Shown in pieces: positions 92-22,766 of a DNA stretch of 64,000 bases. Source of the stretch: Patescibacteria group bacterium (GTDB taxonomy: Bacteria > Patescibacteriota > Minisyncoccia > UBA6257 > UBA9933); the NCBI GenBank assembly GCA_030017615.1, contig JASEIG010000001.1, positions 22,518-86,517 of the forward strand, in the 5' to 3' direction. Numbering within the stretch: the first letter of the stretch is position 1; every line of letters starts with the position of its first letter. The position numbers were made by a program, and so were the translations under genes. The notes below the pieces were generated by a model, which searched no databases, was not told the origin of the DNA, and saw nothing but the letters and a program-made list of their open reading frames with translations.

Positions 92-95
92 TTTT

Positions 96-1028: not shown

Positions 1029-1107
1029 AAAGTAAAATTTTAAATTTTTTATTTTATATAATAGAGAATAAAATTAAAAAGAATAGTTTTTAGTTTATAT
1101 CAAAAAT

Positions 1108-3059: not shown

Positions 3060-3179
3060 TAAATAAAGGTCGAGATAATTTGAATAAATTAAATATCAAA
3101 CAGTGGTTGGTATGGACAAATTTTAAATTATAAACCATCATTATTTATAATTAAAGGAATTACTTTTAAAATAAATAAT

Positions 3180-3950: not shown

Positions 3951-3970
3951 AATATATCGGTGTTTACTAA

Positions 3971-5119: not shown

Positions 5120-5126
5120 TTAAATT

Positions 5127-6326: not shown

Positions 6327-6330
6327 ATTT

Positions 6331-7197
6331 ATGCAATGCCCGATTTGTGATTCTAAAAATATTAAAAATGTAATATTGAAGGAATATACCGGATATAAAT
6401 GCCTGAATTGCGAGGTAGAATTTGTTTGGCCCCAGCCCACAAAAGAAGAATTAAGCAAAATTTATCAGGACGGCTATTACAAATCTTGGGGCGTGGAAGG
6501 AAATAAAAATGATGAAGTGCGTCTGATGAAAATTGCAACATCAAAGAAATATTTGAAAGCGGTTAAAAAATACAAAGAGAAAGGAAAATTATTGGATATT
6601 GGGTGCGCTTTCGGTTATTTACTTGAAGCAGCCGAAGAATCGGGATTTGACATTTATGGAGTTGAACTTTCCCGGTTTAGCAGCGATTTCGCTCAAAAAA
6701 AATTTGTATCCAAAATATTCAACGGCGAATTAAAGGAAGCAAAATTTCCTGAAAATAATTTTGATGTAATTGTAATGTCCGATTTATTGGAGCATATTCC
6801 AAAACCGGTTGAATTTTTAATTGAGGTAAAAAGAATAATAAAAAAAGACGGCGTGATTGTCATAATTACGCCTGATACGGACAGTTTTTCCAGAAAAATT
6901 TTAAGGCCGGATAACTGGTTTCATTACAAATTAGAGCACTTATTTTATTATAATAAGAAATCTTTGAGTAATTTATTGAATAAATTTGATTTTTCATTAT
7001 TGAATAAAAAACCGGCGGTAAAGGCGATTAGCTTGTTGTATTTGAAAAATCAACTTAATATTTTTCGCAATCATATTTTTACGCCGGTTATAAATTTTAT
7101 TTTTTTCTTAAGTCCGGAGTTTATAAAAAAAAAATATCTTTACATTTCAGGAGGGGAAATGTTTGCTATTTTTAAAAAAACTCACGATTGTTATTAA
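6331..7197 (+). CDS. Class I SAM-dependent methyltransferase with N-terminal zinc ribbon
   Basis: CPICDS...CLNCE zinc ribbon. Motif I LLDIGCAFGYLLE. DVIVMSDLLEH motif. Same architecture as the first gene in the window. Confidence 0.6.
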   Translation: MQCPICDSKNIKNVILKEYTGYKCLNCEVEFVWPQPTKEELSKIYQDGYYKSWGVEGNKNDEVRLMKIATSKKYLKAVKKYKEKGKLLDIGCAFGYLLEAAEESGFDIYGVELSRFSSDFAQKKFVSKIFNGELKEAKFPENNFDVIVMSDLLEHIPKPVEFLIEVKRIIKKDGVIVIITPDTDSFSRKILRPDNWFHYKLEHLFYYNKKSLSNLLNKFDFSLLNKKPAVKAISLLYLKNQLNIFRNHIFTPVINFIFFLSPEFIKKKYLYISGGEMFAIFKKTHDCY

Positions 7198-7304
7198 TTA
7201 GTCTGGTTAATTTTCCGTTAACCATCATTGTCATTGAAAAATTTTAAATTTTATGGTTAAATTTTTTCAGTTCTTATCCAAAAATTGACGAGGAGGAATT
7301 TTAA

Positions 7305-8600
7305 ATGAAAATGTTGCTGATAGGGATTACAAGCGAGGTTGAACCCTTAGGGATGATGTATTTAGCCGCGTCTTTAAAGTTACGGGGCCATTCAGTCGAT
7401 TTCCAAATCTTCAAGAATGAAATGAAGGTAAAAGAAGCGACTCTTAAAAACGGCTATGATTTCATCGGTTTCAGCGTTTTGACTGGCTCTCACAAATCAT
7501 TAAAGGATTTGTCGCTGAGATATATGGAGGCTGGAATAAAAACCGTCATTGGCAACGCTCATGCAACTTTTTTTTCCGAGGATTGTTTGAATGTCGCGAA
7601 CTTTGTTCTTGTCGGAGAAGGTATAAATTTAATCAACGATATTGTTGAAAATAAGGTTTCTGAAGGCAAGGTTTTCTCTCCAAACTTGTGTGATGTAAAT
7701 GATATGCCGATGCCGGATCGTGAAATTATTTATAGGGATGGTGAAAGAAAAAATAACCCCATAAAAAATGTCATGACCAGTTTTGGTTGCCCCTTTCGTT
7801 GTAGCTACTGTTACAACGACCAGTATAAAAAACTGTACCCCGGGTATAAAGTCAGATTAAGAAGCGTGGAAAGTGTAATTGATGAATGCGGGTTTTTGAA
7901 AAAAAATTATTCTCTTGGAATGATTTTTTTCCAGGATGACTATTTTGGATTCAATATTCCGTGGCTGGAAGAATTTTCCCGAAAATATTCGGAAATGATA
8001 AAAATACCTTTCCATTGCCAGATGAGAGTGGAAGGTGTCATGGAATTACGGATGGGATTGCTGAAAAAAAGCGGTTGTCACGGCATTACCATTGCCATAG
8101 AAAGCTCCAATAATCGGATAAGAAGGAGGTTACTGAACAGAAAAATGTCTGACAAGCAAATTTGGGATGCCTGCCGCCTGATCAAAGAAAAAGGATTCAA
8201 ATTAAGAACAGAGCAGATAATAGGGTTGCCGGAAAGCTCCATAGATGACGACATTGAGCTTTTAAGATGGAATTGCCAGATAGCCCCCGATATAGCCTGG
8301 ACTTCGATATACGCTCCTTTCAGAGGGACAAGCTTGGGGGAATATTGCGTTAAGCATGGCTTATACACTGGCAATAATGATGATATCGCAGATTCTTTCT
8401 TTGATTCCACGGTTTTGAATTTTAATAAAAAGCATCAAAATCAAATCAACAAGTTGCAAAGAATCTTCTCGCTTTGCGCTAAAATCCAAGATGGTCATAT
8501 TTTAGCGGAAAAATTAATAAAACTGGAAAATCTGGATATAAATTTACTGGCCAAGTTGTTAAAAAATCACTTGTACAATTATGGGCTCTATAAGATTTAG
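7305..8600 (+). CDS. B12-binding domain radical SAM protein
   Basis: N-terminal Rossmann-like B12-binding region, then the FGCPFRCSYCYN radical-SAM CxxxCxxC cluster motif. Confidence 0.7.
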   Translation: MKMLLIGITSEVEPLGMMYLAASLKLRGHSVDFQIFKNEMKVKEATLKNGYDFIGFSVLTGSHKSLKDLSLRYMEAGIKTVIGNAHATFFSEDCLNVANFVLVGEGINLINDIVENKVSEGKVFSPNLCDVNDMPMPDREIIYRDGERKNNPIKNVMTSFGCPFRCSYCYNDQYKKLYPGYKVRLRSVESVIDECGFLKKNYSLGMIFFQDDYFGFNIPWLEEFSRKYSEMIKIPFHCQMRVEGVMELRMGLLKKSGCHGITIAIESSNNRIRRRLLNRKMSDKQIWDACRLIKEKGFKLRTEQIIGLPESSIDDDIELLRWNCQIAPDIAWTSIYAPFRGTSLGEYCVKHGLYTGNNDDIADSFFDSTVLNFNKKHQNQINKLQRIFSLCAKIQDGHILAEKLIKLENLDINLLAKLLKNHLYNYGLYKI

Positions 8601-8616
8601 TAGAAGAATAGTTAAA

Positions 8617-8648
8617 ATCCCCCGCGATGTTATGCAGGGGGTTTTTTA
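8617..8648 (+). terminator. Rho-independent terminator (CCCCCGC...GCAGGGGG stem plus T-run)
   Basis: GC-rich inverted repeat 8619-8641 followed by TTTTTT, immediately after the stop of the B12-rSAM gene. Confidence 0.55.
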
Positions 8649-8799
8649 ATATAAAAACAGAAAGCAAATGACTTGATTTGTAGATTAATTTATCGTATTA
8701 TTATCCGAATTGGATTTGATTAACTGGTATTAAAATTATGATAAAGGGCAATGATTTTTAACTTTTAATTCATTGAGATTGGGGCAATTTATAATTATT

Positions 8800-11244
8800 A
8801 TGAAAAGTAAGTGTAAGTATTTGATTTTGATTTTATTACTAACGGCAATAATGATTGGCGTTAATTTTTATAAGTTTAGTGATACATATTACGGAGGGGA
8901 TACAATTTACGGGGCTCAAGTGGCAAGAAACGTGATGGCTGGGAAAGGTTATGTTACTTCGGAGATGCCGCTTTATGCCATAAATCTTTATCAAAAATTA
9001 GGCCTTTCACTTGACGGGCCATGGCTTAACACTCACAGGTTCGTTTTGCCGGTTTATCTTGATATTCTTTTTATCAAAACATTCGGCAATAATATAAAGA
9101 GTGTAACGTTTTTTTACGACTATCTTTTCTTTTTTTTAACCATAATTTTAATATATTTTTTAGGGTTAAAAATTTGGCCTGATAAGCCGGCTCTGGCATT
9201 TTTAGCCGCCTTTGTATCCTTAATCAATCCATTAGTGCTTGGTTCCGATGTGTTTGTTTTTTTTGTGTTTCTATATGTAATGAATTTATGGAAAGAAAGC
9301 GATTCAAAATGGTATTTGCTTTTGGCAGGTTTGGTTTCCGGAGCGGCGTTTTTAAGCCGTTATAATTACGGCCTTTTTATTGTAGCGGCTTTTCTCGCGA
9401 TGCTTTACTTTTTGGTTTTCAAACAACGAAAACAGCAGCCGCTGAAAATTTTATTAAAACAATTTATTGGCAAGTATCTTGTTTATTTTAGCGGTTTTCT
9501 TGCGGTAGTAGTCGGTTTTGTTATTTGGAATTTAAAAAATACGGGACATGTATTTTTATCAATAAACGGCCTTTTCCAATTATTTCACGATACTCGTTTT
9601 TACAGTTATATCGATGGCTGGTATAAATTGGAATATATCTTCCCGACGGACAATCCTTTTGGTTATCTGTTCACGCATCGTGATGCGTTAGTGGCCGTGA
9701 CTGCCAGATGGTTCAAATATGCTATTTCGGATATCATAAGATTGATTTCGTTTCAAGGAATTTTATGGTGGCCGCCTTTAGTTTTCGGATATTTCATGAT
9801 TTCCCGAAAAATTAAGGATGACTCTTTAAAAACAGTAAATTTTCTTCTGTGGATTGTATTTATTTTAACATTTTTTCAAATCATAATTTTGCCAATTTGG
9901 GCCGGAGGCGTAGGTTATTTTATGTTTTTGTTTCCCATTTTTAGCTTTCCCATCGCCTATGTTTTATATTTTACGTATCAGAAATTTGCAGGCTTCTCGA
10001 TTTTTAACGGCATTGATACCATTTCTTTTTTAAAAAAAATCGGGAATAATATTTTTGGAAAAACAACTTCCGAAAATATTTTGAATATTATTTTGATTAT
10101 TCTGATATTGACATCCTTTATTTTTTTGATTTACCCCCTTCCTACGGCTATTGCCCAATTTTTGGGCACAAAAGGTTCTCCGCTGATGGTTTTAATAATT
10201 TTTTGCTTTATTCTGTTCTTAATTTTAGGCGCGATATTTGTTTCACTAAATAATTACAGCAAGTTATTATTTCCAACCTTTTTATTAATTGGGATGTCCT
10301 ATCTTTTTATTGTCAGAGTCGGTATTTTTAACGACATATCCGGAATGAGCCCGAAATCCAGATGGGATTTGGAGGATAATTTTGAAAATATCAAATTATT
10401 AGAAAAAACTGGTAATAATGGCGTTATTCTTTCATTGGCTCCGTGGAATGTCGTTTGGTGGAGCGCTAATAAGTTGAAATCTCTTCCAATTCCGGAATAC
10501 CCCGATGAAGTTTATCTGCTTGAAACGAAATATAATCAGAAAATTGACGCTATTTATTTGAATAAAATAAATAAATACGTCGTACAAGTGATATCTTACC
10601 CCTGGTCCGCGTATCAAAGGGCTGTTAATTTTGGCTATACATTTGACGGATTTAAAGTTTCAAAAAGGTTACTTGATACCAGCGGCATAATTTTAGAGAG
10701 GGATAAGAATTTCCGTTTTCCTTTATCGACAGATTTGATTGATTTTGGAAAGGAATCGGCCAGTAGCCATTTAATCTGGGGATGGGGAGAAAATCTCAAA
10801 GATGGAGACAGAGATTACGTTTCTGCCGGAGAATTCAGGTATTTGATGAATAAAGATGAATATCACAACGAAGATATTAGGGAAGTTTTCGGTATATTTA
10901 TGGAATCGGGCGTGACTTATAAGCCTAATGTTGAAGTAACTTTTCTTGCGAGTGATAACAAAAAGCCGAATAAGATAGAAATTGCACTGAAGAGTTTGGT
11001 TGAAAAACAAAATATGGAGTTGATTCTTAATGGAAATCTTTTATATGTTGGTCAGCCGGGCGTTGATTTGGGAAATTTTAACATAAGCACTAAGTGGCAA
11101 AAATTGGTGATTAATATAGATTCTCAAAAATTAAATAATGGCACCAATAAATTATCTTTTGTTTTTGCCGCAACTCGCAAAGGAGTTCCTCCGGAAGAGG
11201 ACCAATTTGCCTTGTTTGATTACATAAAATTCTACGGCGATTAA
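8800..11244 (+). CDS. GT-C fold membrane glycosyltransferase (ArnT/PMT-like) with large C-terminal extracytoplasmic domain
   Basis: About 12 predicted TM helices over the first ~500 aa, with aromatic-rich loops typical of the PMT_2/ArnT family. The soluble C-terminal ~300 aa domain is not recognised. ATG at 8800 is preferred over the TTG at 8773. Confidence 0.5.
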   Translation: MKSKCKYLILILLLTAIMIGVNFYKFSDTYYGGDTIYGAQVARNVMAGKGYVTSEMPLYAINLYQKLGLSLDGPWLNTHRFVLPVYLDILFIKTFGNNIKSVTFFYDYLFFFLTIILIYFLGLKIWPDKPALAFLAAFVSLINPLVLGSDVFVFFVFLYVMNLWKESDSKWYLLLAGLVSGAAFLSRYNYGLFIVAAFLAMLYFLVFKQRKQQPLKILLKQFIGKYLVYFSGFLAVVVGFVIWNLKNTGHVFLSINGLFQLFHDTRFYSYIDGWYKLEYIFPTDNPFGYLFTHRDALVAVTARWFKYAISDIIRLISFQGILWWPPLVFGYFMISRKIKDDSLKTVNFLLWIVFILTFFQIIILPIWAGGVGYFMFLFPIFSFPIAYVLYFTYQKFAGFSIFNGIDTISFLKKIGNNIFGKTTSENILNIILIILILTSFIFLIYPLPTAIAQFLGTKGSPLMVLIIFCFILFLILGAIFVSLNNYSKLLFPTFLLIGMSYLFIVRVGIFNDISGMSPKSRWDLEDNFENIKLLEKTGNNGVILSLAPWNVVWWSANKLKSLPIPEYPDEVYLLETKYNQKIDAIYLNKINKYVVQVISYPWSAYQRAVNFGYTFDGFKVSKRLLDTSGIILERDKNFRFPLSTDLIDFGKESASSHLIWGWGENLKDGDRDYVSAGEFRYLMNKDEYHNEDIREVFGIFMESGVTYKPNVEVTFLASDNKKPNKIEIALKSLVEKQNMELILNGNLLYVGQPGVDLGNFNISTKWQKLVINIDSQKLNNGTNKLSFVFAATRKGVPPEEDQFALFDYIKFYGD

Positions 11245-11256
11245 ATGAAATACCGA

Positions 11257-12948
11257 TTAATTATTTAACAAATTAGAATTTTTAAGGAACTTTTTACTTT
11301 CTTTATTTAAAATATTTTTATTAAATTTCCCGTTGGATAAAATTGTTTTTCCGTTAATTTTAATTGTCGCGTCAGCTATGGTACCGTCATAATGCGGACC
11401 ATTATTTTCCCCGCCGAAATAGCTGTTATTGCCGAAGCCAACGTGGATAGTGCCGGCTTTTTTTTCATCTTCCAAAATTGTCCGGTTCAATATGCAGTTT
11501 GGATTTATTCCGATGCCTATCTCGGCAATATACGATAATGTCGGGTATTTTTTAAAGTATCTTTTAATAATCCCTTTATCCTCTCCTTCAATTTTTATTA
11601 TTTTTCCATTTTGGATATGAAATGTAAGAGGAAATTGGGAAACATCTCCTAATTCGTCAAAACTAATATTAAAAATTAAAGTTCCGTTAGCATCGTTTGA
11701 AGTTATTCCGAATGAAATTTCGCCGGAAGGAAAATTGCCTCCGCTTCCTGGATTTTGATAAAGACCGCTTTCAACAAATGCGGAAGAATATTTTAACTTG
11801 AGATTCAAGCCTTTTTTGTTGGAGATTTCTATAATACCATTATTTTTAATTTTATTTAAAACATCATCGCCAAGAGCCGCCATTTTCTTGAAATCAGTGA
11901 AAAAACCGCCGTTCTTTAAAATTTCAGGACACATTCCATAACATTCAAGAACTTTATTTTTATATTCATATTTTGCCCTGCGTCTTGTGGGGGCGTGATA
12001 CCAAGATTGCGATGCAGCCAGAATTATAACACTATAATTCTTTATTTTATTTTTAATAGTAGTCGGAAAATCGTTTTTAAAATCAAGCGGGAGATTTTTA
12101 TCAATATCAACTAATGCACCAGACTCCTTTAATAATCTGCTCAATGAATCAATAAATAATTCGGAACTTTTTATATCTGAAAGTATTAAAATTTTATCTT
12201 TTGATTTAATTCTCCAATAGCGAGAAAAATTATTTATTATCGTTTTTTTATTAATTGTTTGATAATATTGATCTTTAATTTTATTTGTTTGTTTTACAAG
12301 CTCCGAAAATTTTTTTCCGCTTGCGTAAATCGGAAAGACGTCAAGATAGTAAAAATTATATTTACGTTTAGTTTGAGTAAGTTTATGGTAGGCCCACGGC
12401 CCTTCAATCCAAATTGCTGAAATAGCGATGACTTTCGCGCCAGCTTTTTTGGCCAAATTTAAAAGGACTTCAATAGTGTTTCCCGTGGAGATGACATCAT
12501 CAAATATCAGGATTTTTTTATTTTTGATAAGTGATGCGTTAAATTTATCAAGATACAGTTTTTGCTTGTAAGAAGAAGTAGCTGTTGATTTTAATTCTTC
12601 GGCTAAATAAACTTTACTGTCGTTTTTGATATTTTTTCTCGCAACAGCCATATTTTTGAGATTTAATTGTTTTGAAAGTTCATAAGCTATCGGAATCGGT
12701 CTTGATTCGGCAGTCAAAATACAGTCGATTTTTAATAAAGTTACCATTTTTCTGGCGGCTAATTTTGTGAATTCCACGTCAGACCCGAAACTTAGTTTAG
12801 TATTGCCGACAATATTAATTTCACCGCTTTTGCATATAGGCAAAGACCGTTCTAAGCCATAAAAATTTAATTCGTAATTTTTTACGTGATTATTTTTTCT
12901 AATATCAATAAATTTTGTGCTATTGGAAAAAATATCGGGATCTAGCAT
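11257..12948 (-). CDS. Fusion protein: type I phosphoribosyltransferase domain (N) + M29 (AmpS/PepS-like) aminopeptidase domain (C)
   Basis: PRTase PRPP-binding motif ILIFDDVISTGNTIEVL in the N-terminal third. C-terminal EIGIGINPN...AGTIHVGFGNNSYFGGENNGPHYDGTIADATIKINGKTI matches the M29 thermophilic aminopeptidase core. Continuous 563-aa ORF. Confidence 0.55.
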   Translation of the reverse strand: MLDPDIFSNSTKFIDIRKNNHVKNYELNFYGLERSLPICKSGEINIVGNTKLSFGSDVEFTKLAARKMVTLLKIDCILTAESRPIPIAYELSKQLNLKNMAVARKNIKNDSKVYLAEELKSTATSSYKQKLYLDKFNASLIKNKKILIFDDVISTGNTIEVLLNLAKKAGAKVIAISAIWIEGPWAYHKLTQTKRKYNFYYLDVFPIYASGKKFSELVKQTNKIKDQYYQTINKKTIINNFSRYWRIKSKDKILILSDIKSSELFIDSLSRLLKESGALVDIDKNLPLDFKNDFPTTIKNKIKNYSVIILAASQSWYHAPTRRRAKYEYKNKVLECYGMCPEILKNGGFFTDFKKMAALGDDVLNKIKNNGIIEISNKKGLNLKLKYSSAFVESGLYQNPGSGGNFPSGEISFGITSNDANGTLIFNISFDELGDVSQFPLTFHIQNGKIIKIEGEDKGIIKRYFKKYPTLSYIAEIGIGINPNCILNRTILEDEKKAGTIHVGFGNNSYFGGENNGPHYDGTIADATIKINGKTILSNGKFNKNILNKESKKFLKNSNLLNN

Positions 12949-13811: not shown

Positions 13812-14840
13812 TTAAATATTTTTATCTTTTAACCAATCAACCGTGTCTTTGATGGTTTTATCAATATTAATGTAATCAAGCCCAAGTTCTTTTTGGGATT
13901 TTGTCCCATCATATCCGGGTTTTAAACGGGCAATATGAAGGCTTTTCGGCGCGACAATTGGCGGTATTTTGGTAATATAACTGACAGCTAAATTTAAATA
14001 GGCGATTAGATATGCGAACCAATACGGGATTTCAAACCATTTTAATTTAAGATTAGCTGCCTTGGCAATACGCTTAAAAAGATCATTCATTGTCAGATTG
14101 GCCGCACATAAGATATATTTTTCTTTTTCTTTGGCTTTGGTAAGCGCTAAAAAATGGGCACGTCCCACGTCTCTCACGTCAACTAGTCCTATACGTGTGT
14201 CCAGCGAGGCCTTATTTTTTCCTTTCAAAAATCTGTAAATTAATTCCATGGTTGGAGGAATTGATTTATTTCCTATATTAGGTCCGATTACCGCGGCGGG
14301 ATTCAGGATTTTAATGGAAATATTTTCATTGCTTTCCAATAACAGTTTTTCTGATAAGTATTTTGACTGGCCGTAATCATTATCAATATTGCGGAAATTA
14401 TACGGAATTTTTTCATTTGCAACTTCATTTTCCGGCAGCAGACCTATGGTTTTAATACTGCTTGTGTAAATGAATTGCTCAATTCCTTTTTGAACTGCCA
14501 AATTAAGTAAATTTTCCGTTGCTTCAACATTTGTTTTATACAGCAAATTTATATCATCGATCCATATTTTATGTATGGCCGCGGAATGGAAAACATAATT
14601 TATTCCGTCAAGGGCGCTGGAATAAGAATTCGGATTTAAAATATTTCCTCCAATCAATTTCACTCCAAGGGATCTAAGTTTTTCAACGGAATGTTTATCG
14701 GAGTTTTTTCTGATCAGAGCTTTTACAGAAATATTGTTTTCAAGCAGATTTTTAATTATATAAAACCCTACAAATCCGGTGCCGCCGGTGACAAAAGCGA
14801 TTTTTTGAACTATTTTAGATGATATTTTTTGTAATGACAT
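13812..14840 (-). CDS. NAD(P)-dependent epimerase/dehydratase-family SDR reductase
   Basis: N-terminal FVTGGTGFVGFYII Rossmann motif and YGQSK catalytic YxxxK. Overlaps the upstream Cys-rich gene by 26 bp, which suggests an operon. Confidence 0.65.
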   Translation of the reverse strand: MSLQKISSKIVQKIAFVTGGTGFVGFYIIKNLLENNISVKALIRKNSDKHSVEKLRSLGVKLIGGNILNPNSYSSALDGINYVFHSAAIHKIWIDDINLLYKTNVEATENLLNLAVQKGIEQFIYTSSIKTIGLLPENEVANEKIPYNFRNIDNDYGQSKYLSEKLLLESNENISIKILNPAAVIGPNIGNKSIPPTMELIYRFLKGKNKASLDTRIGLVDVRDVGRAHFLALTKAKEKEKYILCAANLTMNDLFKRIAKAANLKLKWFEIPYWFAYLIAYLNLAVSYITKIPPIVAPKSLHIARLKPGYDGTKSQKELGLDYINIDKTIKDTVDWLKDKNI

Positions 14841-15978
14841 ATTTTATATCATTTTTAAATGGGCATGATACGGTTATTCCATCTTTATATATGTCAGTTT
14901 CTTTATTATATTCAAGTAAGAGCAAGTAGGGGAAAATACGCGTAAAAAGATGGAGACAGATAATTTTTGAAAAATCAAAATTGAATACTTGGTTTTCTTT
15001 ATGTTTTAACAAGCAATAATTCTTTGTTTTTTTAACCGTTAATGAAGTTTTTGATTTGTCATTCGGGTCTCTGCTAATCATAAATTCAACTTTTCCGCCG
15101 GGATTTGGGCATTGAACTTGCGCACTGTTGATATCTTTGCTCCATTTGAAATAGCCCCCATTTTGAAATGTTGTTATGTAGGGGATTGCGATGTTAAAAA
15201 CATACGGGCATAGGCTATCCGGCATCAATTCTTTTAAAGTTATTTCTCTTTTTTGCCATAATTTATTTTCACATTTTACATCATTCAAAGAAGTAATTGT
15301 AAATTGGGATAAGTCAGGAAGGCAGAAAAATTGATTATTTGATGATTGTATCGCTTTGGGGCATGAGGTGCAGTTTTGGCAGGAATTTTCGTTAAAGTTG
15401 ACGCTATAGGCGATATCGGTAGCCGAATCGGGGCAAAAAAATTTTATTCTATCAGCACCGTATTTTTTAAGAGATTCATTTCTATTGTATAAATGAATTA
15501 ATGGATATACGGAAAAGAAGGAAGCGGGGCAAAGTTCTTTAATGTCGGGAATTTTTATTTCACATTCATCTCCTTTTTTTAATGCGCAATTATTTCCTGA
15601 GTTTAAAACTTCCAGTTTTATTAGTTTATCAATTGCATCTTTTGGAAATCCAAGTTTTCTGAATATTTTTTCCGCAATATTTAGGATAAATTTAATTTTT
15701 TTAAATCTGTAGCTTATTTTCAGCAAGGTCGGATCACTGGCATTTGGACAACTTACAACGATTTCATTTTTATCTAACTGTTTGCCAAATTTGGCATTAT
15801 ATAAAAGTGCTAAAAGGTACGGATAGACCGCGTAATAAGCATCAATACAAAAATTTTTAGGGTGCAGGGCATCATTGTTATATATTTCTTTGCCGGTTTT
15901 ACAATAGCCACAACCCTTATTTTTTGTTAAATGTTGGCATACGTTTATTTGTTCCAGATTTGTGCAATATTTAACCAT
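14815..15978 (-). CDS. Cysteine-rich protein (about 22 Cys) with four internal ~40-aa C-x8-[YIF]P...[YF][NQ]...C-P repeats; unknown function, candidate radical-SAM partner or substrate
   Basis: Repeats seen directly: FCIDAYYAVYPYLLALLYNAKF..SCPNASD; LCPASFFSVYPLIHLYNRNE..FCPDSATD; LCPYVFNIAIPYITTFQNGG..QCPNPGG; ICLHLFTRIFPYLLLLEYNKET..SCPFKND. Starts 12 bp after the SPASM-rSAM gene stop. Confidence 0.5.
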   Translation of the reverse strand: MVKYCTNLEQINVCQHLTKNKGCGYCKTGKEIYNNDALHPKNFCIDAYYAVYPYLLALLYNAKFGKQLDKNEIVVSCPNASDPTLLKISYRFKKIKFILNIAEKIFRKLGFPKDAIDKLIKLEVLNSGNNCALKKGDECEIKIPDIKELCPASFFSVYPLIHLYNRNESLKKYGADRIKFFCPDSATDIAYSVNFNENSCQNCTSCPKAIQSSNNQFFCLPDLSQFTITSLNDVKCENKLWQKREITLKELMPDSLCPYVFNIAIPYITTFQNGGYFKWSKDINSAQVQCPNPGGKVEFMISRDPNDKSKTSLTVKKTKNYCLLKHKENQVFNFDFSKIICLHLFTRIFPYLLLLEYNKETDIYKDGITVSCPFKNDIKYVITKNII

Positions 15979-15990
15979 TACGATAAAAAG

Positions 15991-17049
15991 TTATTTCCAA
16001 AGCATTTTTTTAATAACATCCATCCAATCCTCAAAATTTAACGCAAAAAATGTAGTTGATTCATCGGAACTTCCGCAAGCTATGCATTTTGCCTTTGGTC
16101 CCAATTTTTCCCAGGCATCTTTAATATTGCCATTATTTACTTTGGATGCGTATTCCGGCCGGAAAAAAGTTGTCGGACAAGGGCATAGGGTATTATCTCC
16201 ATCAAGCCAGCAAATTAAACGTCCATGCCTGCATTCATCGTATTTATAATCGGAAGGCAGATTTTCCTTAAAACCGATTGAGGTATAGCTAATAGGCCAA
16301 TCCGCAGCTTTTTTAAGGGAATTAAACGTATTACTGATAGGATAACCCTGTTTTTTCAGTTCAATCAGTTTTTGATATACTTTTTTGGTTTCTTCGGTTG
16401 TTAGTTCTCCGGTACCCACAGATTTTGTATTTTCCGCTCCGGAAACGACGGATACACAGAAAGAAACTTGGGTGTTATATTTTTTTGCCAAATCAAAAAG
16501 ACTCATAATAGATTCATTATTAAAAGCACTTTCCCTGACAAGAGCGGCATGAATTTCAAAGGGTATTTTATTTGCAAAAGCAGCATCCATTCCTTCAATA
16601 ACTTTTTGATAAATTCCTTTTCCTCTCGTTTGTTCAACTATCTGTTCATTGCCATCAAGGCTAAAACTTAGCTGGTCCGCTCCAAGAAGGGCATCAATTC
16701 TATTTGCCACTAATACTCCATTTGTAGAAATTCGACAAAAACGTTCCTTATTTTTTATGTATGATATAATTTCTTTCAAATCCGGTCTTAAACAAGGCTC
16801 GCCGCCTTGTAAAAGAAATATTCTTGTTCCAAGTTTAATAAATTGGTTAATGTAACTCTTAAGTTGTTGGGTATTATAATCCGGTATTCCCACATTTTCT
16901 TGATCCTTGGCATAACAAAATATGCAATTTAAGTTACATTTATTTGTTAATCCTAAAGAAACCATTAAGGGAACTCTTCTTTTTGTAATTTTATAATTTA
17001 AAGAGTGGAGAAAAATAAAAAATCCATTAATAACATATTCTTTTTTCAT
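15991..17049 (-). CDS. Radical SAM protein with C-terminal SPASM/twitch-like cysteine cluster
   Basis: CNLNCIFCYA (CxxxCxxC) near the N-terminus. C-terminal CRHGRLICWLDGDNTLCPCP...CIACGSSDE auxiliary-cluster pattern. Confidence 0.7.
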   Translation of the reverse strand: MKKEYVINGFFIFLHSLNYKITKRRVPLMVSLGLTNKCNLNCIFCYAKDQENVGIPDYNTQQLKSYINQFIKLGTRIFLLQGGEPCLRPDLKEIISYIKNKERFCRISTNGVLVANRIDALLGADQLSFSLDGNEQIVEQTRGKGIYQKVIEGMDAAFANKIPFEIHAALVRESAFNNESIMSLFDLAKKYNTQVSFCVSVVSGAENTKSVGTGELTTEETKKVYQKLIELKKQGYPISNTFNSLKKAADWPISYTSIGFKENLPSDYKYDECRHGRLICWLDGDNTLCPCPTTFFRPEYASKVNNGNIKDAWEKLGPKAKCIACGSSDESTTFFALNFEDWMDVIKKMLWK

Positions 17050-17170: not shown

Positions 17171-18370
17171 ATGAAAATTCTTCATATTGTTCCGACTTAT
17201 TATCCGGCTGTGCGCTATGGCGGGCCTATAAAGAGCGAATATGAATTGAATAAATGGTTAGTTAAAAAAGGGGCTGATGTGACCGTTTACACCACAAATC
17301 TTGACGGGAAAGGGGTTTTGGACGTTTCATTGGGAAAAGAGGTGATTATTGATGGCGTTAAAGTTTATTATTTCCCAATAACTTTTAGATCGTGGCAGTA
17401 TTCTTGGCAACTTCATCGCGCTTTGGCAAAAAATGTCCAAAATTTTGATTTGATTCGCATCACGTCTGTTTTTTTAGCAGTTTCCACTTTAGGAGCTTAT
17501 TATGCTAAAAAATTTAAAAAACCGTATGTTATTTCACCGCGCGGGAGTTTAATGAAAGAGCCACTTATCAGAAAAAGCTCTCTTAAAAAGAAAATTTATC
17601 TTAATTTGGTTGAAAAAAGAAATTTAAAAGACGCAATAATCAATTTTACGACTGAGATGGAAAAAAAGGAGTATTTGGATTTAAATTTTCCCCTAAAAAA
17701 TTCAATTATAACTCCGAATGGCATTGATGTTAATGAATTCAGTAAAAAAGTTCCACAAGGATTTTTTAGAAATAAATTCAAAATTTCAAATGACAAAAAA
17801 ATAATTCTATCTTTGGGACGGTTAAATTGGAAAAAAGGTTTTGACACTTTTATTCCGGCTTTTGCTAAAATAATTAAAAAAGAACCGAAAGCGGTTTTGG
17901 TTATTGCTGGGGGAGATGATGAGGGATACGGACAAAAAATCAAATCTCAAATCTCAAATCTCAAAATTGAGGATAAAACTATCTTTACGGGAATGCTAGC
18001 TGGTGATGATAAAATTGCGGTTTATCAGGACAGTAATATTTTTGTTTTACCGTCGTATTCGGAAAATTTTGGCAATGTTGTTTTGGAGGCGGCATATTTT
18101 GGCTTACCGGTTGTTGTCACTAAAGGAGTTGCTGTCGGTTTGGAATTTGAAAAAGCCGGTGCTGGAATTGCTGTTGAAAAAAATGTCCAAGAATTGGCCG
18201 AAGCGATTTTAAAGATTTTAAAAAATTCGGGATTAGGCAAAAAGATGGGCATAGTTGGGAAAAAATTTGTTGAAACTGAATTTTCTTGGTTGAAAATAAC
18301 GGAGAATTTTATAAAAAAGTATAGTGATTTATTGATAAATAAACAAATTAATGAAACCAATTTATCTTGA
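17171..18370 (+). CDS. Glycosyltransferase family 4
   Basis: ILHIVPTYYPAVRYGGP N-terminus and the ENFGNVVLEAAYFGLPVVVT EX7E motif. Contains the in-frame heptanucleotide repeat tract. Confidence 0.75.
   Translation: MKILHIVPTYYPAVRYGGPIKSEYELNKWLVKKGADVTVYTTNLDGKGVLDVSLGKEVIIDGVKVYYFPITFRSWQYSWQLHRALAKNVQNFDLIRITSVFLAVSTLGAYYAKKFKKPYVISPRGSLMKEPLIRKSSLKKKIYLNLVEKRNLKDAIINFTTEMEKKEYLDLNFPLKNSIITPNGIDVNEFSKKVPQGFFRNKFKISNDKKIILSLGRLNWKKGFDTFIPAFAKIIKKEPKAVLVIAGGDDEGYGQKIKSQISNLKIEDKTIFTGMLAGDDKIAVYQDSNIFVLPSYSENFGNVVLEAAYFGLPVVVTKGVAVGLEFEKAGAGIAVEKNVQELAEAILKILKNSGLGKKMGIVGKKFVETEFSWLKITENFIKKYSDLLINKQINETNLS
17938..17965 (+). repeat. Heptanucleotide tandem repeat (AAATCTC)x3 plus partial units, in frame inside the GT4 CDS (encodes KSQISNLK)
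   Basis: aaatc-aaatctc-aaatctc-aaatctc-aaaa read directly. An identical unit is repeated x4 at 36456-36483 in the carbamoyltransferase gene. Confidence 0.8.
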
Positions 18371-19520
18371 TTACGCGGCCGCCACATATATTGACCCGGC
18401 GGTTTTAAGGAAAATAACACCATATTTAAAAAGGAATTTCGGCAATCCGTCCTCTTTGCATTTACCGGGCAGAAACGCAAAAATGGCAATTGAAAATTCC
18501 AGAACAATTATTGCCGGTATTTTGGGCGTTGAATCACAAGAAATTATTTTTACCGGTTCCGGAACAGAATCGGATAATTTGGCGATTTTTGGTATTGCTA
18601 GAGCGCATAAAAATAAAGGCAACCATGTTATTATTTCAAAAATAGAACATAAAGCGGTCTTGGAAGCGGCTAAAAAACTGAGAAAAGAAGGTTTTGAAAT
18701 AACTTATCTAAATGTTGATTCGGAGGGAATGGTAAAATTGCCGGAAATTAAAAAAGCTTTAAGAAAAAACACAATTTTAGTTTCAATAATGTATGCGAAT
18801 AATGAAATCGGAACTATTCAACCGATTAGTGAAATTTCAAAAATTATCAGAGATTTTAGAAAAAACAATTTGTTTCCGGTATTTCATACCGACGCATGCC
18901 AGGCGGCCGGCGCTTTGGATTTGAATATTGGGAAATTAGGAGTTGATTTAATGACTCTAAATAGTTCAAAAATTTATGGTCCCAAAGGAGCCGGATGTCT
19001 TTATGTGTCAAAAAACATTAATTTAGAATCGCTGATTGTCGGCGGCGGACAAGAACGTAATATAAGAGCCGGAACGGAAAATACGGCTTTAATTGTTGGT
19101 TTTAGCGAAGCTTTAAAATTAGCGGAAAAATTAAGAAAAAAAGAATCTCTGAGACTAAAAAAACTTAGAAATTATTTTATTAAAAAATTTTTAAAAACTA
19201 TTCCAGATTCTCGTCTTAATGGCCATAAAGAAAAACGGCTTCCTAATAATATAAATATTTCAATTAATGAAGCTGAAGGGGAATCGTTAATGCTGATGTT
19301 GGATAAAAATAAAATTTTTGCTTCAACCGGATCTGCTTGCACATCAGACAGTTTGGAAGTGTCTCATGTGCTTTTAGCAACCGGCCTTTCACCTGAACTT
19401 TCTCATTGCAGTCTAAGATTTACTTTAGGCAGAAAAACAGCTAAAAGCGATATTGACTGTGTATTGAAAATTTTACCAGAAATAGTTTATAAATTAAGAA
19501 AGATTTCTTCTTTCAAATAA
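18351..19520 (+). CDS. iscS: Cysteine desulfurase (class V aminotransferase, IscS/NifS)
   Basis: PIYLDYAAATYIDP N-terminus. SSKIYGPKGAGCLYV active-site Cys loop. HK PLP-lysine context. Confidence 0.8.
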   Translation: MKPIYLDYAAATYIDPAVLRKITPYLKRNFGNPSSLHLPGRNAKMAIENSRTIIAGILGVESQEIIFTGSGTESDNLAIFGIARAHKNKGNHVIISKIEHKAVLEAAKKLRKEGFEITYLNVDSEGMVKLPEIKKALRKNTILVSIMYANNEIGTIQPISEISKIIRDFRKNNLFPVFHTDACQAAGALDLNIGKLGVDLMTLNSSKIYGPKGAGCLYVSKNINLESLIVGGGQERNIRAGTENTALIVGFSEALKLAEKLRKKESLRLKKLRNYFIKKFLKTIPDSRLNGHKEKRLPNNINISINEAEGESLMLMLDKNKIFASTGSACTSDSLEVSHVLLATGLSPELSHCSLRFTLGRKTAKSDIDCVLKILPEIVYKLRKISSFK

Positions 19521-19528
19521 TTAAAACA

Positions 19529-20008
19529 ATGGAAGATAAAAATAACAAACAAACAAAAGGAGATGTTGTCTCTAACGACAAATATAAAGAAGAGTCATGG
19601 GTTTATAGCGGAATAGTTAAAGATCATTTTTTCAATCCGAGAAATATTCTTTTGGATAGCGATGCGTTATATGAAGCTGATGGTATTGGAGTTGCCGGAA
19701 GTCCCGCTTGCGGCGATATGATGACTGTTTGGATAAAAATTAATCCGGAGACAAAAAAAATAAAGGAATGCAAATGGCGCACATTCGGTTGCGCTTCCGC
19801 AATAGCTTCAACATCAATGATGTCCGTTATGGTTACTGAAAACGGCGGTATGGATATAAAAGAAGCCATTAATTTAAAACCGCAACAGATTCTTGAACGG
19901 CTTGGCGGCTTGCCTGACAGGAAATTTCATTGTTCTGTTTTGGGGCATATCGCTTTAAGAGAATCAATCAACGATTATCTTAAAAAAAATGGATCCGCAA
20001 AAAAATAA
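19529..20008 (+). CDS. iscU: Fe-S cluster assembly scaffold, NifU/IscU N-terminal domain family
   Basis: GSPACGDMMTVWIKI and CASAIAST...HC conserved Cys pattern of IscU/NifU scaffolds. Immediately downstream of iscS. Confidence 0.7.
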   Translation: MEDKNNKQTKGDVVSNDKYKEESWVYSGIVKDHFFNPRNILLDSDALYEADGIGVAGSPACGDMMTVWIKINPETKKIKECKWRTFGCASAIASTSMMSVMVTENGGMDIKEAINLKPQQILERLGGLPDRKFHCSVLGHIALRESINDYLKKNGSAKK

Positions 20009-20732
20009 ATTATTCGTTCTTAGAAATAGAATAAATGAAGCTGATGATATAGCGACTTTTAAATTTATGCCGGTTAAAGGAAAAAATTTACCTTTTATAG
20101 CCGGACAATTCGTGAATGTTTATTTTTTAGATAATCGTTGCGGCGGACAAGGCAAGCCGTATTCTATTTCAAGCATTCCAAGCGATAAATTTTTAAGCAT
20201 TACCGTTAAAAAAATCGGGAAATTTTCGGGCGCTTTGCATGATTTGAAAATAGGAGAAAGGGTGAAAATAACCGAACCACAAGGATATTTTTGTCCGGAA
20301 AATCAAATGAAAAATATTGTTTTTTTAGCGGGCGGTATCGGCATTACCCCCTTTTACAGCGTGATAAAAGATTATTTTAGCAAAAAAGCCGATAAAAATC
20401 TTTTTCTTTTTTATGGTAATAAAACAAAAAAAGACGCCGTTTTCTTAAAAGAATTGAGCGACTTGGCGAAAAGTTGGGAAAGATTGAAAATAATCAATGC
20501 TTTCACGCGGGAACCTATTTTACCGTCTGACAAAAAGTGCGTGACAATATCAATGAATGTAAAAAACGAATTTAAGAGAATTGACGTTAAAATGCTTAAA
20601 AAACATTTGAAAAATTTAAACAATAAGCATTATTTTATTTGCGGTTCAATCGGTTTTGTCACCGATTTATGGAAAGAGCTTAAAGAAAACCAAATTAAAG
20701 AAGATTATATCAGAGTGGAATCGTTTTATTAA
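19989..20732 (+). CDS. Ferredoxin-NADP reductase-like FAD/NAD(P)-binding oxidoreductase
   Basis: KPYSISS (RxYS-type FAD motif) and VFLAGGIGITPFYSV NAD-binding GxGxxP motif. No extra Fe-S domain. Confidence 0.6.
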   Translation: MDPQKNKLFVLRNRINEADDIATFKFMPVKGKNLPFIAGQFVNVYFLDNRCGGQGKPYSISSIPSDKFLSITVKKIGKFSGALHDLKIGERVKITEPQGYFCPENQMKNIVFLAGGIGITPFYSVIKDYFSKKADKNLFLFYGNKTKKDAVFLKELSDLAKSWERLKIINAFTREPILPSDKKCVTISMNVKNEFKRIDVKMLKKHLKNLNNKHYFICGSIGFVTDLWKELKENQIKEDYIRVESFY

Positions 20733-20944
20733 TCCTCAATTTTAATTGCTTTTACTGGGCACATCAATGCCGCATTTTTGACACAACCAGTGTTTTCAAC
20801 TTCAAGTTCAAAGTCGTTGATATTTTTTTTGGAATTTTTAAGTTGTGCTAAATTATCTTCGAGGTTAATCTCAAAAAAATCCGGGCATATCGAGGCGCAA
20901 GCTCCGCATCCGACACATTTTTCTTTTTGGTGGACAATTTTCAT
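20729..20944 (-). CDS. 4Fe-4S ferredoxin (2 x CxxCxxCxxxCP)
   Basis: CVGCGACASICP and CVKNAALMCPVKAI. 71 aa. Confidence 0.65.
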   Translation of the reverse strand: MKIVHQKEKCVGCGACASICPDFFEINLEDNLAQLKNSKKNINDFELEVENTGCVKNAALMCPVKAIKIED

Positions 20945-21009
20945 TGTATTAAACTATAATTGATTGAACAAATAAAATCTATTTTATCATTAAACATTAT
21001 TATTATCAA

Positions 21010-22083
21010 ATGCTCATATTTTCAAAAAAATTTTTTAAAAAAATATCTTCGGTAGTTCCAAATCGTTTTAAGGAGCTTGTTCCGAAACATGTTAAAAATT
21101 TTTTAAGGGGAAAATATATTTCGCGAACAGTAATTATAGACATTGTAGGAACGTGCAATTTAAAGTGTCCATCTTGTCCTAATGGAAACGTTGAAAAAAG
21201 AAACCCAGTCGGGATGATGAATTTGGGTATATTTAATAAGATGTTAGACAAAGTTGCGCTTGAGCATCCAGGGACAACAGTGGCAATTTATAATTGGACT
21301 GATCAATTTCTTCATCCTCAAATAATTGAATTTATAAAAGCTATTCATAAACGTGGTTTTAAATCGCGATTAAGTAGTAATCTCAATTTGCTCCCCGTTA
21401 ATCTTAAAGAATTTGCGGAAACAAATCCAGGCGGAATTACCATATCGCTTTCCGGTTTTACACAAAAAGTTTATGAAATTGCTCATAAGGGAGGCGATAT
21501 TGAAATTATCAAAGAAAATATGCGCAAATTAAGCATGGCTTTGCGAGAAGCAAATGTGTCCACAAGCGTGAATGTGTATTACCATAAATATAAACATAAT
21601 TTGGACGAGGTAAAATTAATGGAAGATTTTGCAAAATCTTTAGGATTTGGTTTTGGAGCGGATTGGGCGTATTTTATGCCAATTGAAGGGGTTAAAAGAT
21701 ATATTGATGGCAATGCTCCCGAGGAAGATGTTAAATTTATAGAAACAAATCTGGCTTTAGATATTAAGAAGGCTGTTGAAGTAGCTAAAGCTTTTAAGGA
21801 TGAGCCGTGCCTTTTTCCGTCAACATTGCTCACGATTGATTGGCGGGGACAAGTCCAATTATGTTGCGGCGTTTATGATTCAAGCCTGTTTTCTTTGGGA
21901 TCTTATCTGGATATGCCATGGGAAATTATTGAGAGCAGATTAAAAAATCACCCTTTTTGCAATGAATGCAAAAAGAATGGACTTCATACCTATATTTCCT
22001 GGAGTAGCAATGAAAAAATTCGTCCAATATATAAAAAAATTGCTGAAGAAAGCATTAAAAATAACAACACAAAAAACAAATGA
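21010..22083 (+). CDS. Radical SAM protein (possible twitch/SPASM-like C-terminus)
   Basis: IVGTCNLKCPSCPNG CxxxCxxC. C-terminal CCGVYDS...HPFCNECKKNG Cys cluster. Confidence 0.65.
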   Translation: MLIFSKKFFKKISSVVPNRFKELVPKHVKNFLRGKYISRTVIIDIVGTCNLKCPSCPNGNVEKRNPVGMMNLGIFNKMLDKVALEHPGTTVAIYNWTDQFLHPQIIEFIKAIHKRGFKSRLSSNLNLLPVNLKEFAETNPGGITISLSGFTQKVYEIAHKGGDIEIIKENMRKLSMALREANVSTSVNVYYHKYKHNLDEVKLMEDFAKSLGFGFGADWAYFMPIEGVKRYIDGNAPEEDVKFIETNLALDIKKAVEVAKAFKDEPCLFPSTLLTIDWRGQVQLCCGVYDSSLFSLGSYLDMPWEIIESRLKNHPFCNECKKNGLHTYISWSSNEKIRPIYKKIAEESIKNNNTKNK

Positions 22084-22766
22084 AAATTACTTTATTTATT
22101 CCAACCTTTAATGAAATACAGGGAATTAAAATGATTATGCCCAGAATAAAAAAAGAATGGGTTAATGAAATTTTAATTATTGATGGAAATTCGACTGATG
22201 GGACCAAAGAGTGGTTGGAACAAAGTGGCTATAGAGTAGCAACTCAAAAAGAACCCGGACTTTTGTCTGCCTGGTGGCAGGGGTTTGAAACGGCAACTGG
22301 TGACATTATAATCTCGTTTAGTCCGGATGGCAATTCGGTCCCGGAGTTGATACCTGCTTTAGTCGATAAAATAAAAGAAGGTTATGATATAGTTATCGCT
22401 TCTCGTTATAAAGACGATGCAAAAAGCGATGATGACACTTGGATGACGGGCTTAGGCAACTTTATGTTTACTAAAATAATTAATCTTCTTTTTGGCGGAC
22501 ATTATACTGATGCTTTGGGTATGTACCGCGCTTTTAGAAAAGAATTGATCACCTCATTGAAATTAGATAATGATAAAAATGAAATTTTTGAAGTGCTTTT
22601 GTCTATTAGAGCCGCCAAGCAAAGGTTGAAAATCGCCGAAATTCCCGGAGACGAACCGCCGAGAGTTGACAAAGAAGACAGTCGGGCGCACCCGGGCATT
22701 TGGGGTAAATTTAAAGGGGGCTTGAAAATGATTTCTATTATTATTAAGGAATTTTTTAAGAGTTGA
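22080..22766 (+). CDS. Glycosyltransferase family 2 (dolichyl/polyprenyl-phosphate sugar synthase-like)
   Basis: ITLFIPTFNE...IIDGNSTDGT...GDIIISFSPDG...ASRY motifs of DPM1/GtrB-like GT2. 4-bp start/stop overlap with the upstream rSAM gene. Confidence 0.7.
   Translation: MKITLFIPTFNEIQGIKMIMPRIKKEWVNEILIIDGNSTDGTKEWLEQSGYRVATQKEPGLLSAWWQGFETATGDIIISFSPDGNSVPELIPALVDKIKEGYDIVIASRYKDDAKSDDDTWMTGLGNFMFTKIINLLFGGHYTDALGMYRAFRKELITSLKLDNDKNEIFEVLLSIRAAKQRLKIAEIPGDEPPRVDKEDSRAHPGIWGKFKGGLKMISIIIKEFFKS

Follow-up and report, generated by a model that had tools for sequence, protein, structure and literature searches.

We analysed a 64,000-nucleotide stretch of DNA from a Patescibacteria group bacterium (GenBank assembly GCA_030017615.1, contig JASEIG010000001.1, positions 22,518 to 86,517 of the forward strand), which we refer to as the window and whose G+C content is ~30-40% on average. 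An open reading frame (ORF) check of the window places three minus-strand ORFs at 13812-17049, in the order radical S-adenosylmethionine (rSAM) enzyme, Cys-rich protein and short-chain dehydrogenase/reductase (SDR). The rSAM and Cys-rich genes are 12 bp apart (15979-15990), and the Cys-rich and SDR genes overlap by 26 bp (14815-14840). Gene coordinates, gap and overlap are exactly those of a preliminary description made from the sequence alone, which had seen in the three genes a candidate system for the maturation of a Cys-rich protein. That they form a conserved rSAM-centred module without a known function is well supported by the comparisons reported below. The minus-strand operon probably extends past the SDR into a purine nucleoside phosphorylase (PNP) gene and an adenine-phosphoribosyltransferase-like (APRT-like) gene, the intervals being 23 and 9 bp. 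A promoter-like site, TTGACT-17-TAAAAT, lies just upstream of the rSAM gene; three other sites in the region scanned score as high, and none higher. Because such sites are in total no commoner there than in shuffled sequence, we consider it weak evidence for a promoter. The genes and the site are as follows.

15991-17049, minus strand: rSAM enzyme, 352 amino acids; PF04055, CxxxCxxC motif, twitch-like C-terminal Cys set
14815-15978, minus strand: Cys-rich protein with four tandem TIGR04076 domains, 387 amino acids; TIGR04076 97.6 bits
13812-14840, minus strand: extended SDR, predicted NAD(P)-dependent carbonyl reductase of the HpnA/dihydroflavonol reductase/cinnamoyl-CoA reductase-like class, 342 amino acids; PF01370, PF01073
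12958-13788, minus strand: PNP, 276 amino acids; PRK08202; 23 bp downstream of the SDR
11257-12948, minus strand: APRT-like domain (residues ~23-190) plus a ~350-residue unmatched region, 563 amino acids; PF00156, PRK07322
17085-17113, minus strand: promoter-like site upstream of the rSAM gene, TTGACT-17-TAAAAT, 10/12 positions; weak

The Cys-rich protein belongs to NCBIfam family TIGR04076 (E=4.6e-28, 97.6 bits against a cut-off of 33, in three matched stretches). With a domain hidden Markov model (HMM) built from 15 orthologues, four domains in the window protein align in register.

~15697-15951, minus strand: TIGR04076 domain D1, from the family-derived domain HMM
15388-15630, minus strand: TIGR04076 domain D2, from the same HMM
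15064-15315, minus strand: TIGR04076 domain D3, from the same HMM
14821-15051, minus strand: TIGR04076 domain D4, from the same HMM

Each domain comprises ~80 amino acids and is made up of a beta-hairpin with the first Cys, a helix that starts with the second Cys (usually Cys-Pro) and holds a YP motif, and a strand with the third Cys-Pro at its end. The preliminary description had proposed four repeats of ~40 amino acids with two Cys each. The repeats are real and far beyond chance, but the repeating unit is the ~80-residue domain with three conserved Cys, of which the ~40-residue C...YP...CP element forms the C-terminal half. We count 20 Cys in the protein rather than 22, and the spacing given as C-x8-[YIF]P is in fact C-x7-[YIF]P. 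The repeat had been described as unrecognised; while it has no characterised function, it is not new as a sequence family and is already catalogued as TIGR04076. The JGI name of the family is 'uncharacterized repeat protein, TIGR04076 family', and in the literature searched TIGR04076 appears as an annotation label only, with no assigned function.

We examined conservation in an alignment of 15 four-domain orthologues with 38-51% identity (A1). Conservation extends over the full length of the protein and includes C23, C44 and C77 in D1, C131, C150 and C182 in D2, C257 and C290 in D3, and C322 in D4. Omnitrophota orthologues in A1 lack the hairpin Cys of D3 and the third, sometimes also the second, Cys of D4. 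Across 25 diverse D1-D2 units all six Cys are invariant, and the residue at position +3 from the first Cys is a His in 18 and a Cys in 3 sequences (together 21/25). Two of the three conserved Cys in each domain are Cys-Pro. Asp184, which follows the third Cys-Pro of D2, is found in 21 of the 25 sequences and Asn79 of D1 in only 9; an Asp or Asn after the CP is not conserved across the four domains in this set. Conserved motifs outside the Cys are the YPY helix, GGYFKW and GFPKDAIDK, the last of which forms the D1-D2 linker together with a helix and is invariant in A1. In this pattern the conserved Cys resemble metal ligands, and the TIGR04076 domains are putative metal-binding modules, for an Fe-S cluster or zinc.

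An AlphaFold2 (AF2) model of the protein, calculated from only 15 sequences, has a mean predicted local distance difference test score (pLDDT) of 81 and a predicted template modelling score (pTM) of 0.86, with the D2-D3 linker disordered (pLDDT<50). This linker harbours a ferredoxin-like CxxCxxC...C(L)P stretch, formed by residues 200-206 (15360-15381, minus strand) and Cys219 (15322-15324). We rejected it as a conserved ferredoxin-like cluster, as it is present only in the window protein and is missing from all 14 orthologues. Pfam gave no match to the whole protein, nor to its single domains at E<=5, sequence and profile searches of the PDB with the protein returned nothing, and a fold search with the model found no match among solved structures. 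The maximum Kyte-Doolittle score over 19 residues is only 1.49, and we therefore assign no transmembrane segment or signal peptide to the protein; the preliminary description had left the signal peptide to be checked, and no hydrophobic segment could serve as one. A C-x-[PA]-x-R motif is present at none of the 20 Cys.

The rSAM enzyme is a member of the radical SAM superfamily (PF04055, 74.2 bits against a gathering cut-off of 29.5). In an alignment of 23 homologues with 29-64% identity (A2), the core motif C38-x3-C42-x2-C45 is invariant, as are exactly four further Cys, namely C273, C291, C322 and C325 (C-x17-C-x30-C-x2-C). A fifth C-terminal Cys, C280, is kept only among close orthologues. 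We took SPASM membership to mean a match to the domain model (TIGR04085 / PF13186) together with seven to eight Cys for two auxiliary clusters, and a twitch domain to be a truncated SPASM-like C-terminal domain with about four Cys and one auxiliary [4Fe-4S] cluster. PF13186 is not among the Pfam matches of the whole enzyme at E<=0.01, and its C-terminal 112 amino acids matched nothing in Pfam or NCBIfam at E<=5. The enzyme, which has four invariant auxiliary Cys and no model match, is hence not assigned to SPASM. The SPASM-type enzyme of the preliminary description retains its CxxxCxxC motif and its conserved auxiliary-cluster Cys, but these correspond to a twitch-like, single-cluster set. Matches to the mycofactocin and ScmE maturase models reach residues ~292-313, and the structural neighbours anSME, SkfB, MoaA and BlsE bear SPASM/twitch-type C-terminal domains. 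Based on its Cys pattern, we call the enzyme twitch-like, with one predicted auxiliary cluster, and place it in no characterised family.

All NCBIfam matches of the enzyme (AhbC, MoaA, AhbD, NirJ, mycofactocin maturase, HpnH, anSME, PapB and others) fall far under their cut-offs. The anSME model TIGR03942 scores 48.7 bits against a cut-off of 349, and the HpnH model TIGR03470 scores 57.5 against 225 and covers the core only. Scores for the PapB, StsB, WgkB, sactipeptide and mycofactocin maturase models are far below cut-off each time, and a QhpD model is not among the best 25 NCBIfam matches. The comparison with SPASM, anSME and ranthipeptide or other maturase models of ribosomally synthesized and post-translationally modified peptides (RiPPs), which the preliminary description had proposed, thus yielded no match above cut-off. 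In the AF2 model of the enzyme (pLDDT 91) a single N-terminal helix precedes the core, which begins at about residue 29, and there is no N-terminal peptide-recognition domain of the RRE (RiPP recognition element) or PqqD-like type. Lacking such a domain, and being encoded next to a folded 387-residue four-domain protein, the enzyme does not qualify as a RiPP rSAM maturase. Its Foldseek neighbours, at template modelling (TM) scores of 0.5-0.63, are anSME at the top, followed by BlsE, MoaA, SuiB, SkfB, DesII and viperin. Of these, anSME, SuiB and SkfB modify proteins or peptides, whereas BlsE, MoaA, DesII and viperin act on small molecules.

The SDR matches PF01370 with 102 bits and PF01073 with 94 bits, and both its glycine-rich motif and its YxxxK motif are intact. 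The nearest NCBIfam family is HpnA (TIGR03466), which is matched over the full length with 249.9 bits, the next family scoring 128. As the HpnA cut-off is 367.65 bits, the protein is not a member. The closest PDB structures are 3wj7, vestitone reductase, cinnamoyl-CoA reductase and dihydroflavonol reductase, and a thioester-reductase domain model and NAD_binding_4 each score 81 bits. By these similarities, the predicted structural class of the SDR is that of the carbonyl/thioester reductases rather than the nucleotide-sugar epimerases.

We next compared the locus across genomes. Related loci were gathered by exact-protein look-up, a genome scan and a metagenome scan, and their neighbouring genes were annotated with HMMs made from the window proteins. 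This gave ~24 independent loci after removal of duplicates, 20 of them with enough flanking sequence to be judged. The rSAM gene adjoins a TIGR04076 gene in all 20, at a spacing of ~40 bp or less or with a 1-4 bp overlap in 17 and of up to ~400 bp in the rest. In 19 of the 20 loci the rSAM enzyme is clearly of the A2 clade, the one in locus L021 scoring only 27 bits; the clade was called from A2-profile scores of ~230-580 bits or, on fragments and on contigs without DNA, from a lower score or a Pfam call on a gene of similar size. The loci cover Patescibacteria, Omnitrophota, Planctomycetia and unassigned sediment bacteria and range from 33 to 68% in G+C. The scan of the genome collection contributed only two of them, from Omnitrophota and Planctomycetia, and a tblastn search of plasmids found no match to the module. 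An SDR gene is adjacent or within two genes in 11 loci. Identity between the window and related loci is highest for the rSAM enzyme, at 52-64%; it is 39-51% for the SDR and 34-44% for the repeat protein, to which the split L005 genes align only in part. The four TIGR04076 domains are encoded by one gene or by two di-domain genes (L005/L006, L018) in different loci, and yet other loci have a di-domain gene alone or a single domain and another ORF (L030); the total for a locus remains at about four domains. The TIGR04076 subfamily described here consists of two- to four-domain proteins that are always found beside one rSAM clade.

An exhaustive profile search of 1.84 billion cluster representatives recovered only 380 family members at E<=0.001. 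A domain-profile search of a set of 5.8 billion proteins returned two matches only. TIGR04076 proteins with a single domain are common in Clostridia and methanogens. All five long family members are fusions. Three join TIGR04076 domains to classical SDRs, at the N- or C-terminus, and one to an extended SDR, the fusion gene being itself preceded by an rSAM gene. The fifth (P0054) combines DUF362 and a 2x[4Fe-4S] ferredoxin with three TIGR04076 domains. A DUF362 and 4Fe-4S ferredoxin gene of the same architecture is located just upstream of the rSAM gene in L009/L010 (931-2091); DUF362 is uncharacterised and shares a Pfam clan with the N-terminal domain of LarA. These findings together indicate that the three-gene unit of the preliminary description is genuine, is conserved across phyla and is backed by Rosetta-stone fusions to SDRs. 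The suggestion that the SDR may be unrelated to the pair fails, since the SDR recurs beside the pair and is found fused to TIGR04076 repeats. A match of the Cys-rich protein to a known Fe-S or zinc family, an absence of co-occurrence or a lack of auxiliary Cys had been named as grounds for abandoning the original proposal, and we observed none of the three. Because of the fusion and synteny evidence, we infer that the three proteins work together physically.

The two genes that follow the SDR encode enzymes of purine metabolism. The PNP is canonical, with 258 bits against a cut-off of 218 for PRK08202 and matches to PDB structures of PNPs at E=1e-51. Its 11 NCBIfam matches comprise PNP, methylthioadenosine phosphorylase (MTAP) and xanthosine phosphorylase models, and HpnG is absent from all of them. 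The APRT-like protein matches PF00156 and PRK07322 (111 bits), and its nearest structures are the APRTs 5zgo and 6fsp. Its C-terminal ~350 residues (11257-12300, minus strand) have no Pfam match at E<=5, and NCBIfam and PDB searches with the entire 563-residue fusion matched the phosphoribosyltransferase (PRT) domain alone. A distant rSAM/TIGR04076 pair in L009/L010 (~30% identity) is followed by genes for a PRT, adenine deaminase, a PNP 38% identical to that of the window (in L009), a B12-binding rSAM (B12-rSAM) and a second rSAM, and in L021 a PRT gene overlaps the end of the TIGR04076 gene. The PRTs of L009 and L021 lack the C-terminal extension of the window protein. None of the five closest clusters (L001, L003, L004, L008 and L011) has a PNP or PRT gene within 8 kb. 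The recurrence of PNP and APRT suggests a handling of 5'-deoxyadenosine or adenine tied to the module. We considered that they might be chance neighbours from purine salvage and settled on a loose link only, since L009 and L021 share such genes with the window and the closest clusters do not.

The operon is surrounded by genes for glycan tailoring. The plus-strand island at 84-11244 encodes a methyltransferase, a glycosyltransferase (GT), a GT2, a TylF-like O-methyltransferase, a GT4, a GT9, a methyltransferase, a B12-rSAM and a membrane protein. Its last four genes are the following.

5127-6326, plus strand: GT9 glycosyltransferase, from Pfam; accessory gene
6331-7197, plus strand: class-I methyltransferase, from Pfam; accessory gene
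7305-8600, plus strand: B12-binding rSAM, from Pfam; accessory gene
8773-11244, plus strand: 823-residue polytopic membrane protein with a weak GT-C/PMT_2 match (PMT_2 21.5 bits, below cut-off); membership in the module uncertain

Homologues of the GT9, methyltransferase and B12-rSAM (26-40% identity) lie beside the trio in each of the five closest clusters, and Omnitrophota clusters carry PMT, STT3 and GT2 genes alongside the pair. No homologue of the 823-residue membrane protein was detected in the related loci. In Omnitrophota-type clusters a protein of 520-650 residues without a Pfam domain adjoins the B12-rSAM genes (~13700-15300 in L001, L003 and L011; 12728-14416 in L004; 4601-6544 in L008), and no homologue of it was detected in the window. 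On the other side of the operon, the block at 17171-22766 contains, in order, a GT4, a cysteine desulfurase (Aminotran_5), a NifU_N scaffold, an FNR-like FAD/NAD oxidoreductase, a 71-residue single-cluster ferredoxin encoded on the minus strand, an rSAM (21010-22083) and a GT2. This block could provide Fe-S assembly and electron supply for the rSAM enzymes of the island. We rejected its NifS/NifU, FNR-like and ferredoxin genes as parts of the module, as they were seen in no related locus. Locus L007, on the contig of P0039, encodes an rSAM of the same clade (31% identity) that has no TIGR04076 neighbour; around it are three other rSAM/SPASM genes, a GT9, a GT2, a class-III aminotransferase, a B12-rSAM and a split transketolase/DXS-like pair. 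It looks like a related but distinct sugar-tailoring cluster.

We tentatively favour, at somewhat less than an even chance, a partner role for the TIGR04076 protein, which would be folded, probably bind metal and take part in an rSAM/SDR step on a non-peptide substrate. The operon of rSAM, TIGR04076 protein, SDR, PNP and APRT-like genes would then carry out one radical tailoring step of the surrounding glycoconjugate island. The twitch-like rSAM enzyme would turn a 5'-deoxyadenosyl radical on a sugar-derived or lipid-linked substrate, and the HpnA/dihydroflavonol reductase-like SDR would take the resulting, or preceding, carbonyl with NAD(P)H. The pseudo-repeated TIGR04076 protein, which would reside in the cytoplasm, may bind one metal per domain, most likely as an Fe-S cluster and possibly as zinc, through the three conserved Cys and a His, Cys or Asp. 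In complex with the rSAM enzyme and the SDR it would act as an electron relay or substrate-presenting subunit, and not as a substrate of the leader-peptide type. PNP and APRT would clear and recycle the adenine of the 5'-deoxyadenosine by-product. In keeping with the lack of PNP and PRT in the closest clusters, we read these two as serving adenine clearance and recycling for the several rSAM enzymes of the island in small genomes.

We favour the partner role because the three conserved Cys of a domain, two of which are Cys-Pro, resemble metal ligands to which a His, Cys or Asp could add a fourth, because no crosslink acceptor is conserved, and because the rSAM enzyme has no recognition domain and a single predicted auxiliary cluster. 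A subunit for redox chemistry or substrate handling would be consistent with the fusions to SDRs and to a ferredoxin protein, the count of about four domains per locus fits a fixed assembly rather than a variable substrate, and the neighbourhood is one of glycan and small-molecule tailoring. The 31%-identical rSAM in a sugar-type cluster without a TIGR04076 neighbour points the same way. Other observations weigh against a partner role. The fold of the TIGR04076 protein matches nothing solved, and the loss of one or two of the three Cys from D3 and D4 in Omnitrophota is odd if each domain needs a metal. It is not obvious how a flavin-less SDR would partner an electron-transfer protein, and the nearby FNR-like reductase and ferredoxin could already supply electrons. 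The tight adjacency of an rSAM gene and a gene for a Cys-rich protein is also typical of protein modifiers such as QhpD/QhpC, and the top Foldseek neighbour of the rSAM enzyme, anSME, is a protein-modifying enzyme. With PNP and PRT missing from the closest, Omnitrophota clusters, the link to adenine salvage is perhaps loose.

Several of these observations would be accounted for if the TIGR04076 protein were itself the substrate, with the rSAM enzyme introducing thioether crosslinks or oxidizing Cys in each domain in a QhpD/QhpC- or anSME-like manner and the SDR tailoring the product. Such systems show the invariable adjacency of rSAM and Cys-rich genes seen here; a Pro and often an Asp/Asn follows the conserved Cys, as with Asp184; anSME is joined by SuiB and SkfB among the fold neighbours; and a multi-site substrate could tolerate partial loss of Cys from D3 and D4. 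Tailoring by SDRs is known for some ribosomal peptides, as by ElxO. However, no acceptor residue is common to the four domains, with Asn79 in a minority of sequences, and the anSME-type C-x-[PA]-x-R motif is not in the sequence. The rSAM enzyme has no recognition domain and the Cys set of a single auxiliary cluster, and none of its scores for anSME, PapB, sactipeptide and mycofactocin maturases comes near the cut-off. A substrate would not usually be expected as a fusion to SDRs or to DUF362-ferredoxin, and the rest of the cluster is concerned with glycans and small molecules. We regard a substrate role as unlikely, albeit a serious contender, and the Cys-to-Asp/Asn crosslinks envisaged in the preliminary description are not supported, as the acceptor is not conserved, the Cys are ligand-like and the protein is fused to SDRs and a ferredoxin. 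A role as carrier or scaffold, in which an intermediate is tethered to Cys as a thioester or thioether for the rSAM enzyme and the SDR, appears very unlikely to us. The SDR class does include thioester/aldehyde reductases, with the 81-bit models and cinnamoyl-CoA reductase structures close by, and repeated SDR fusions would suit a carrier; yet at least nine conserved Cys, at a fixed three per domain, exceed what a carrier needs, and the clusters share no conserved ligase or acyltransferase that could load it. That the three genes are functionally unrelated chance neighbours, for which only the compactness of small genomes could speak, is refuted for practical purposes by the pairing in 20/20 evaluable loci from at least three phyla with 33-68% G+C and by the SDR fusions.

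A further explanation takes its lead from the order of the operon, in which rSAM, TIGR04076, HpnA-like SDR, PNP and APRT-like genes follow one another. The encoded proteins could carry out an adenosylation resembling that of the hopanoid side chain, on a non-hopanoid acceptor. The rSAM enzyme would add the 5'-deoxyadenosyl radical to an alkene, as HpnH does, PNP would remove the adenine, as HpnG does, APRT would recycle it, the HpnA-like SDR would reduce the opened ribose, and GTs and B12-rSAMs would decorate the polyol, with the TIGR04076 protein presenting the substrate or giving the quenching hydrogen atom and electron. HpnG is homologous to PNPs, and the function of HpnA and the reductase from ribosylhopane to bacteriohopanetetrol are unassigned (PMC12583986; PMC13459092). 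No other NCBIfam family comes near HpnA in its score for the SDR (250 bits versus 128 for the next), PNP, PRT and adenine deaminase recur with the ~30%-identical pair in L009, as does PRT in L021, and the B12-rSAM and GT genes parallel HpnJ/P/R and HpnI. Against this, the HpnH score of the rSAM enzyme (57.5 versus 225) is lower than those for AhbC, MoaA and NirJ, the PNP is above its own equivalog cut-off with no HpnG model among its matches, and a squalene-hopene cyclase or other obvious alkene-lipid gene was not seen in the window. The absence of PNP and PRT within 8 kb in the five closest clusters is better explained by housekeeping salvage. We consider this adenosylation distinctly unlikely.

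Our understanding of rSAM enzymes usually comes family by family, from the substrates they act on or the proteins they work with. The module described here links one rSAM clade, in several candidate phyla, to a domain family that has long been numbered and has no assigned function. New in the material searched appear to be the obligate pairing with one twitch-type rSAM clade, the recurrent fusion to SDRs and the absence of a solved structural relative. In the boldest reading, the TIGR04076 repeat would be a novel type of rSAM partner, a Cys3-metal module whose fold has no solved relative. Bound obligately to a dedicated twitch-type rSAM enzyme and an SDR, it would serve a chemistry as yet undescribed in Patescibacteria, Omnitrophota and Planctomycetia. 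A candidate for this chemistry would be an HpnH-like adenosylation on a lipid or glycan carrier other than a hopanoid, after which the adenine would be removed and the ribose reduced; another would be rSAM-installed crosslinks that make the repeat protein a built-in cofactor. We consider it unlikely overall that the module will prove to hold such a novel partner, a cofactor protein that is crosslinked to itself or an adenosyl-transfer route outside hopanoids. The fusions to SDRs and a ferredoxin provide a concrete, testable handle on the role of the TIGR04076 domain, and the adenine-salvage genes that recur nearby may point to the way in which bacteria with reduced genomes deal with 5'-deoxyadenosine, or to adenosyl transfer beyond the hopanoid producers. 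In either case, several hundred proteins that now lack annotation would gain a function, as would part of the envelope glycosylation islands of Patescibacteria and Omnitrophota.

We compared the module to known systems. The window protein shares the Cys pattern and the YP helix that form the signature of the TIGR04076 family, whose entry has no assigned function, Pfam entry or solved structure. In QhpD/QhpC and anSME systems an rSAM gene is likewise found beside a gene for a Cys-rich protein, and anSME is the top Foldseek match. However, the window rSAM has no SPASM match and four rather than seven or eight invariant auxiliary Cys, and the Cys-rich protein is four times larger, repeated, fused to SDRs elsewhere and devoid of C-x-P-x-R. 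The hopanoid module of HpnH (rSAM), HpnG (PNP homologue) and HpnA (SDR), with HpnI/J/P/R, brings the same enzyme classes together in one cluster. In the window, the rSAM, PNP and SDR all fall outside the respective Hpn families and hopene-forming genes were not seen, and hpn clusters as described have no TIGR04076 counterpart. The module may be likened to AprD4/AprD3, a dehydratase plus reductase pair, and the Cys spacing of its rSAM enzyme to that of BtrN. For BtrN, MoaA, DesII and BlsE, twitch enzymes acting on sugars or nucleotides, similarity to the window rSAM is that of a generic core only (14-18% identity), and neither they nor AprD4/AprD3 are known to have a TIGR04076-type partner. The window rSAM nevertheless resembles these twitch enzymes in its core and in its C-terminal hairpin Cys pair and CxxC, which may bind one auxiliary [4Fe-4S] cluster, and its module likewise has an NAD(P) reductase alongside and a glycan-tailoring setting.

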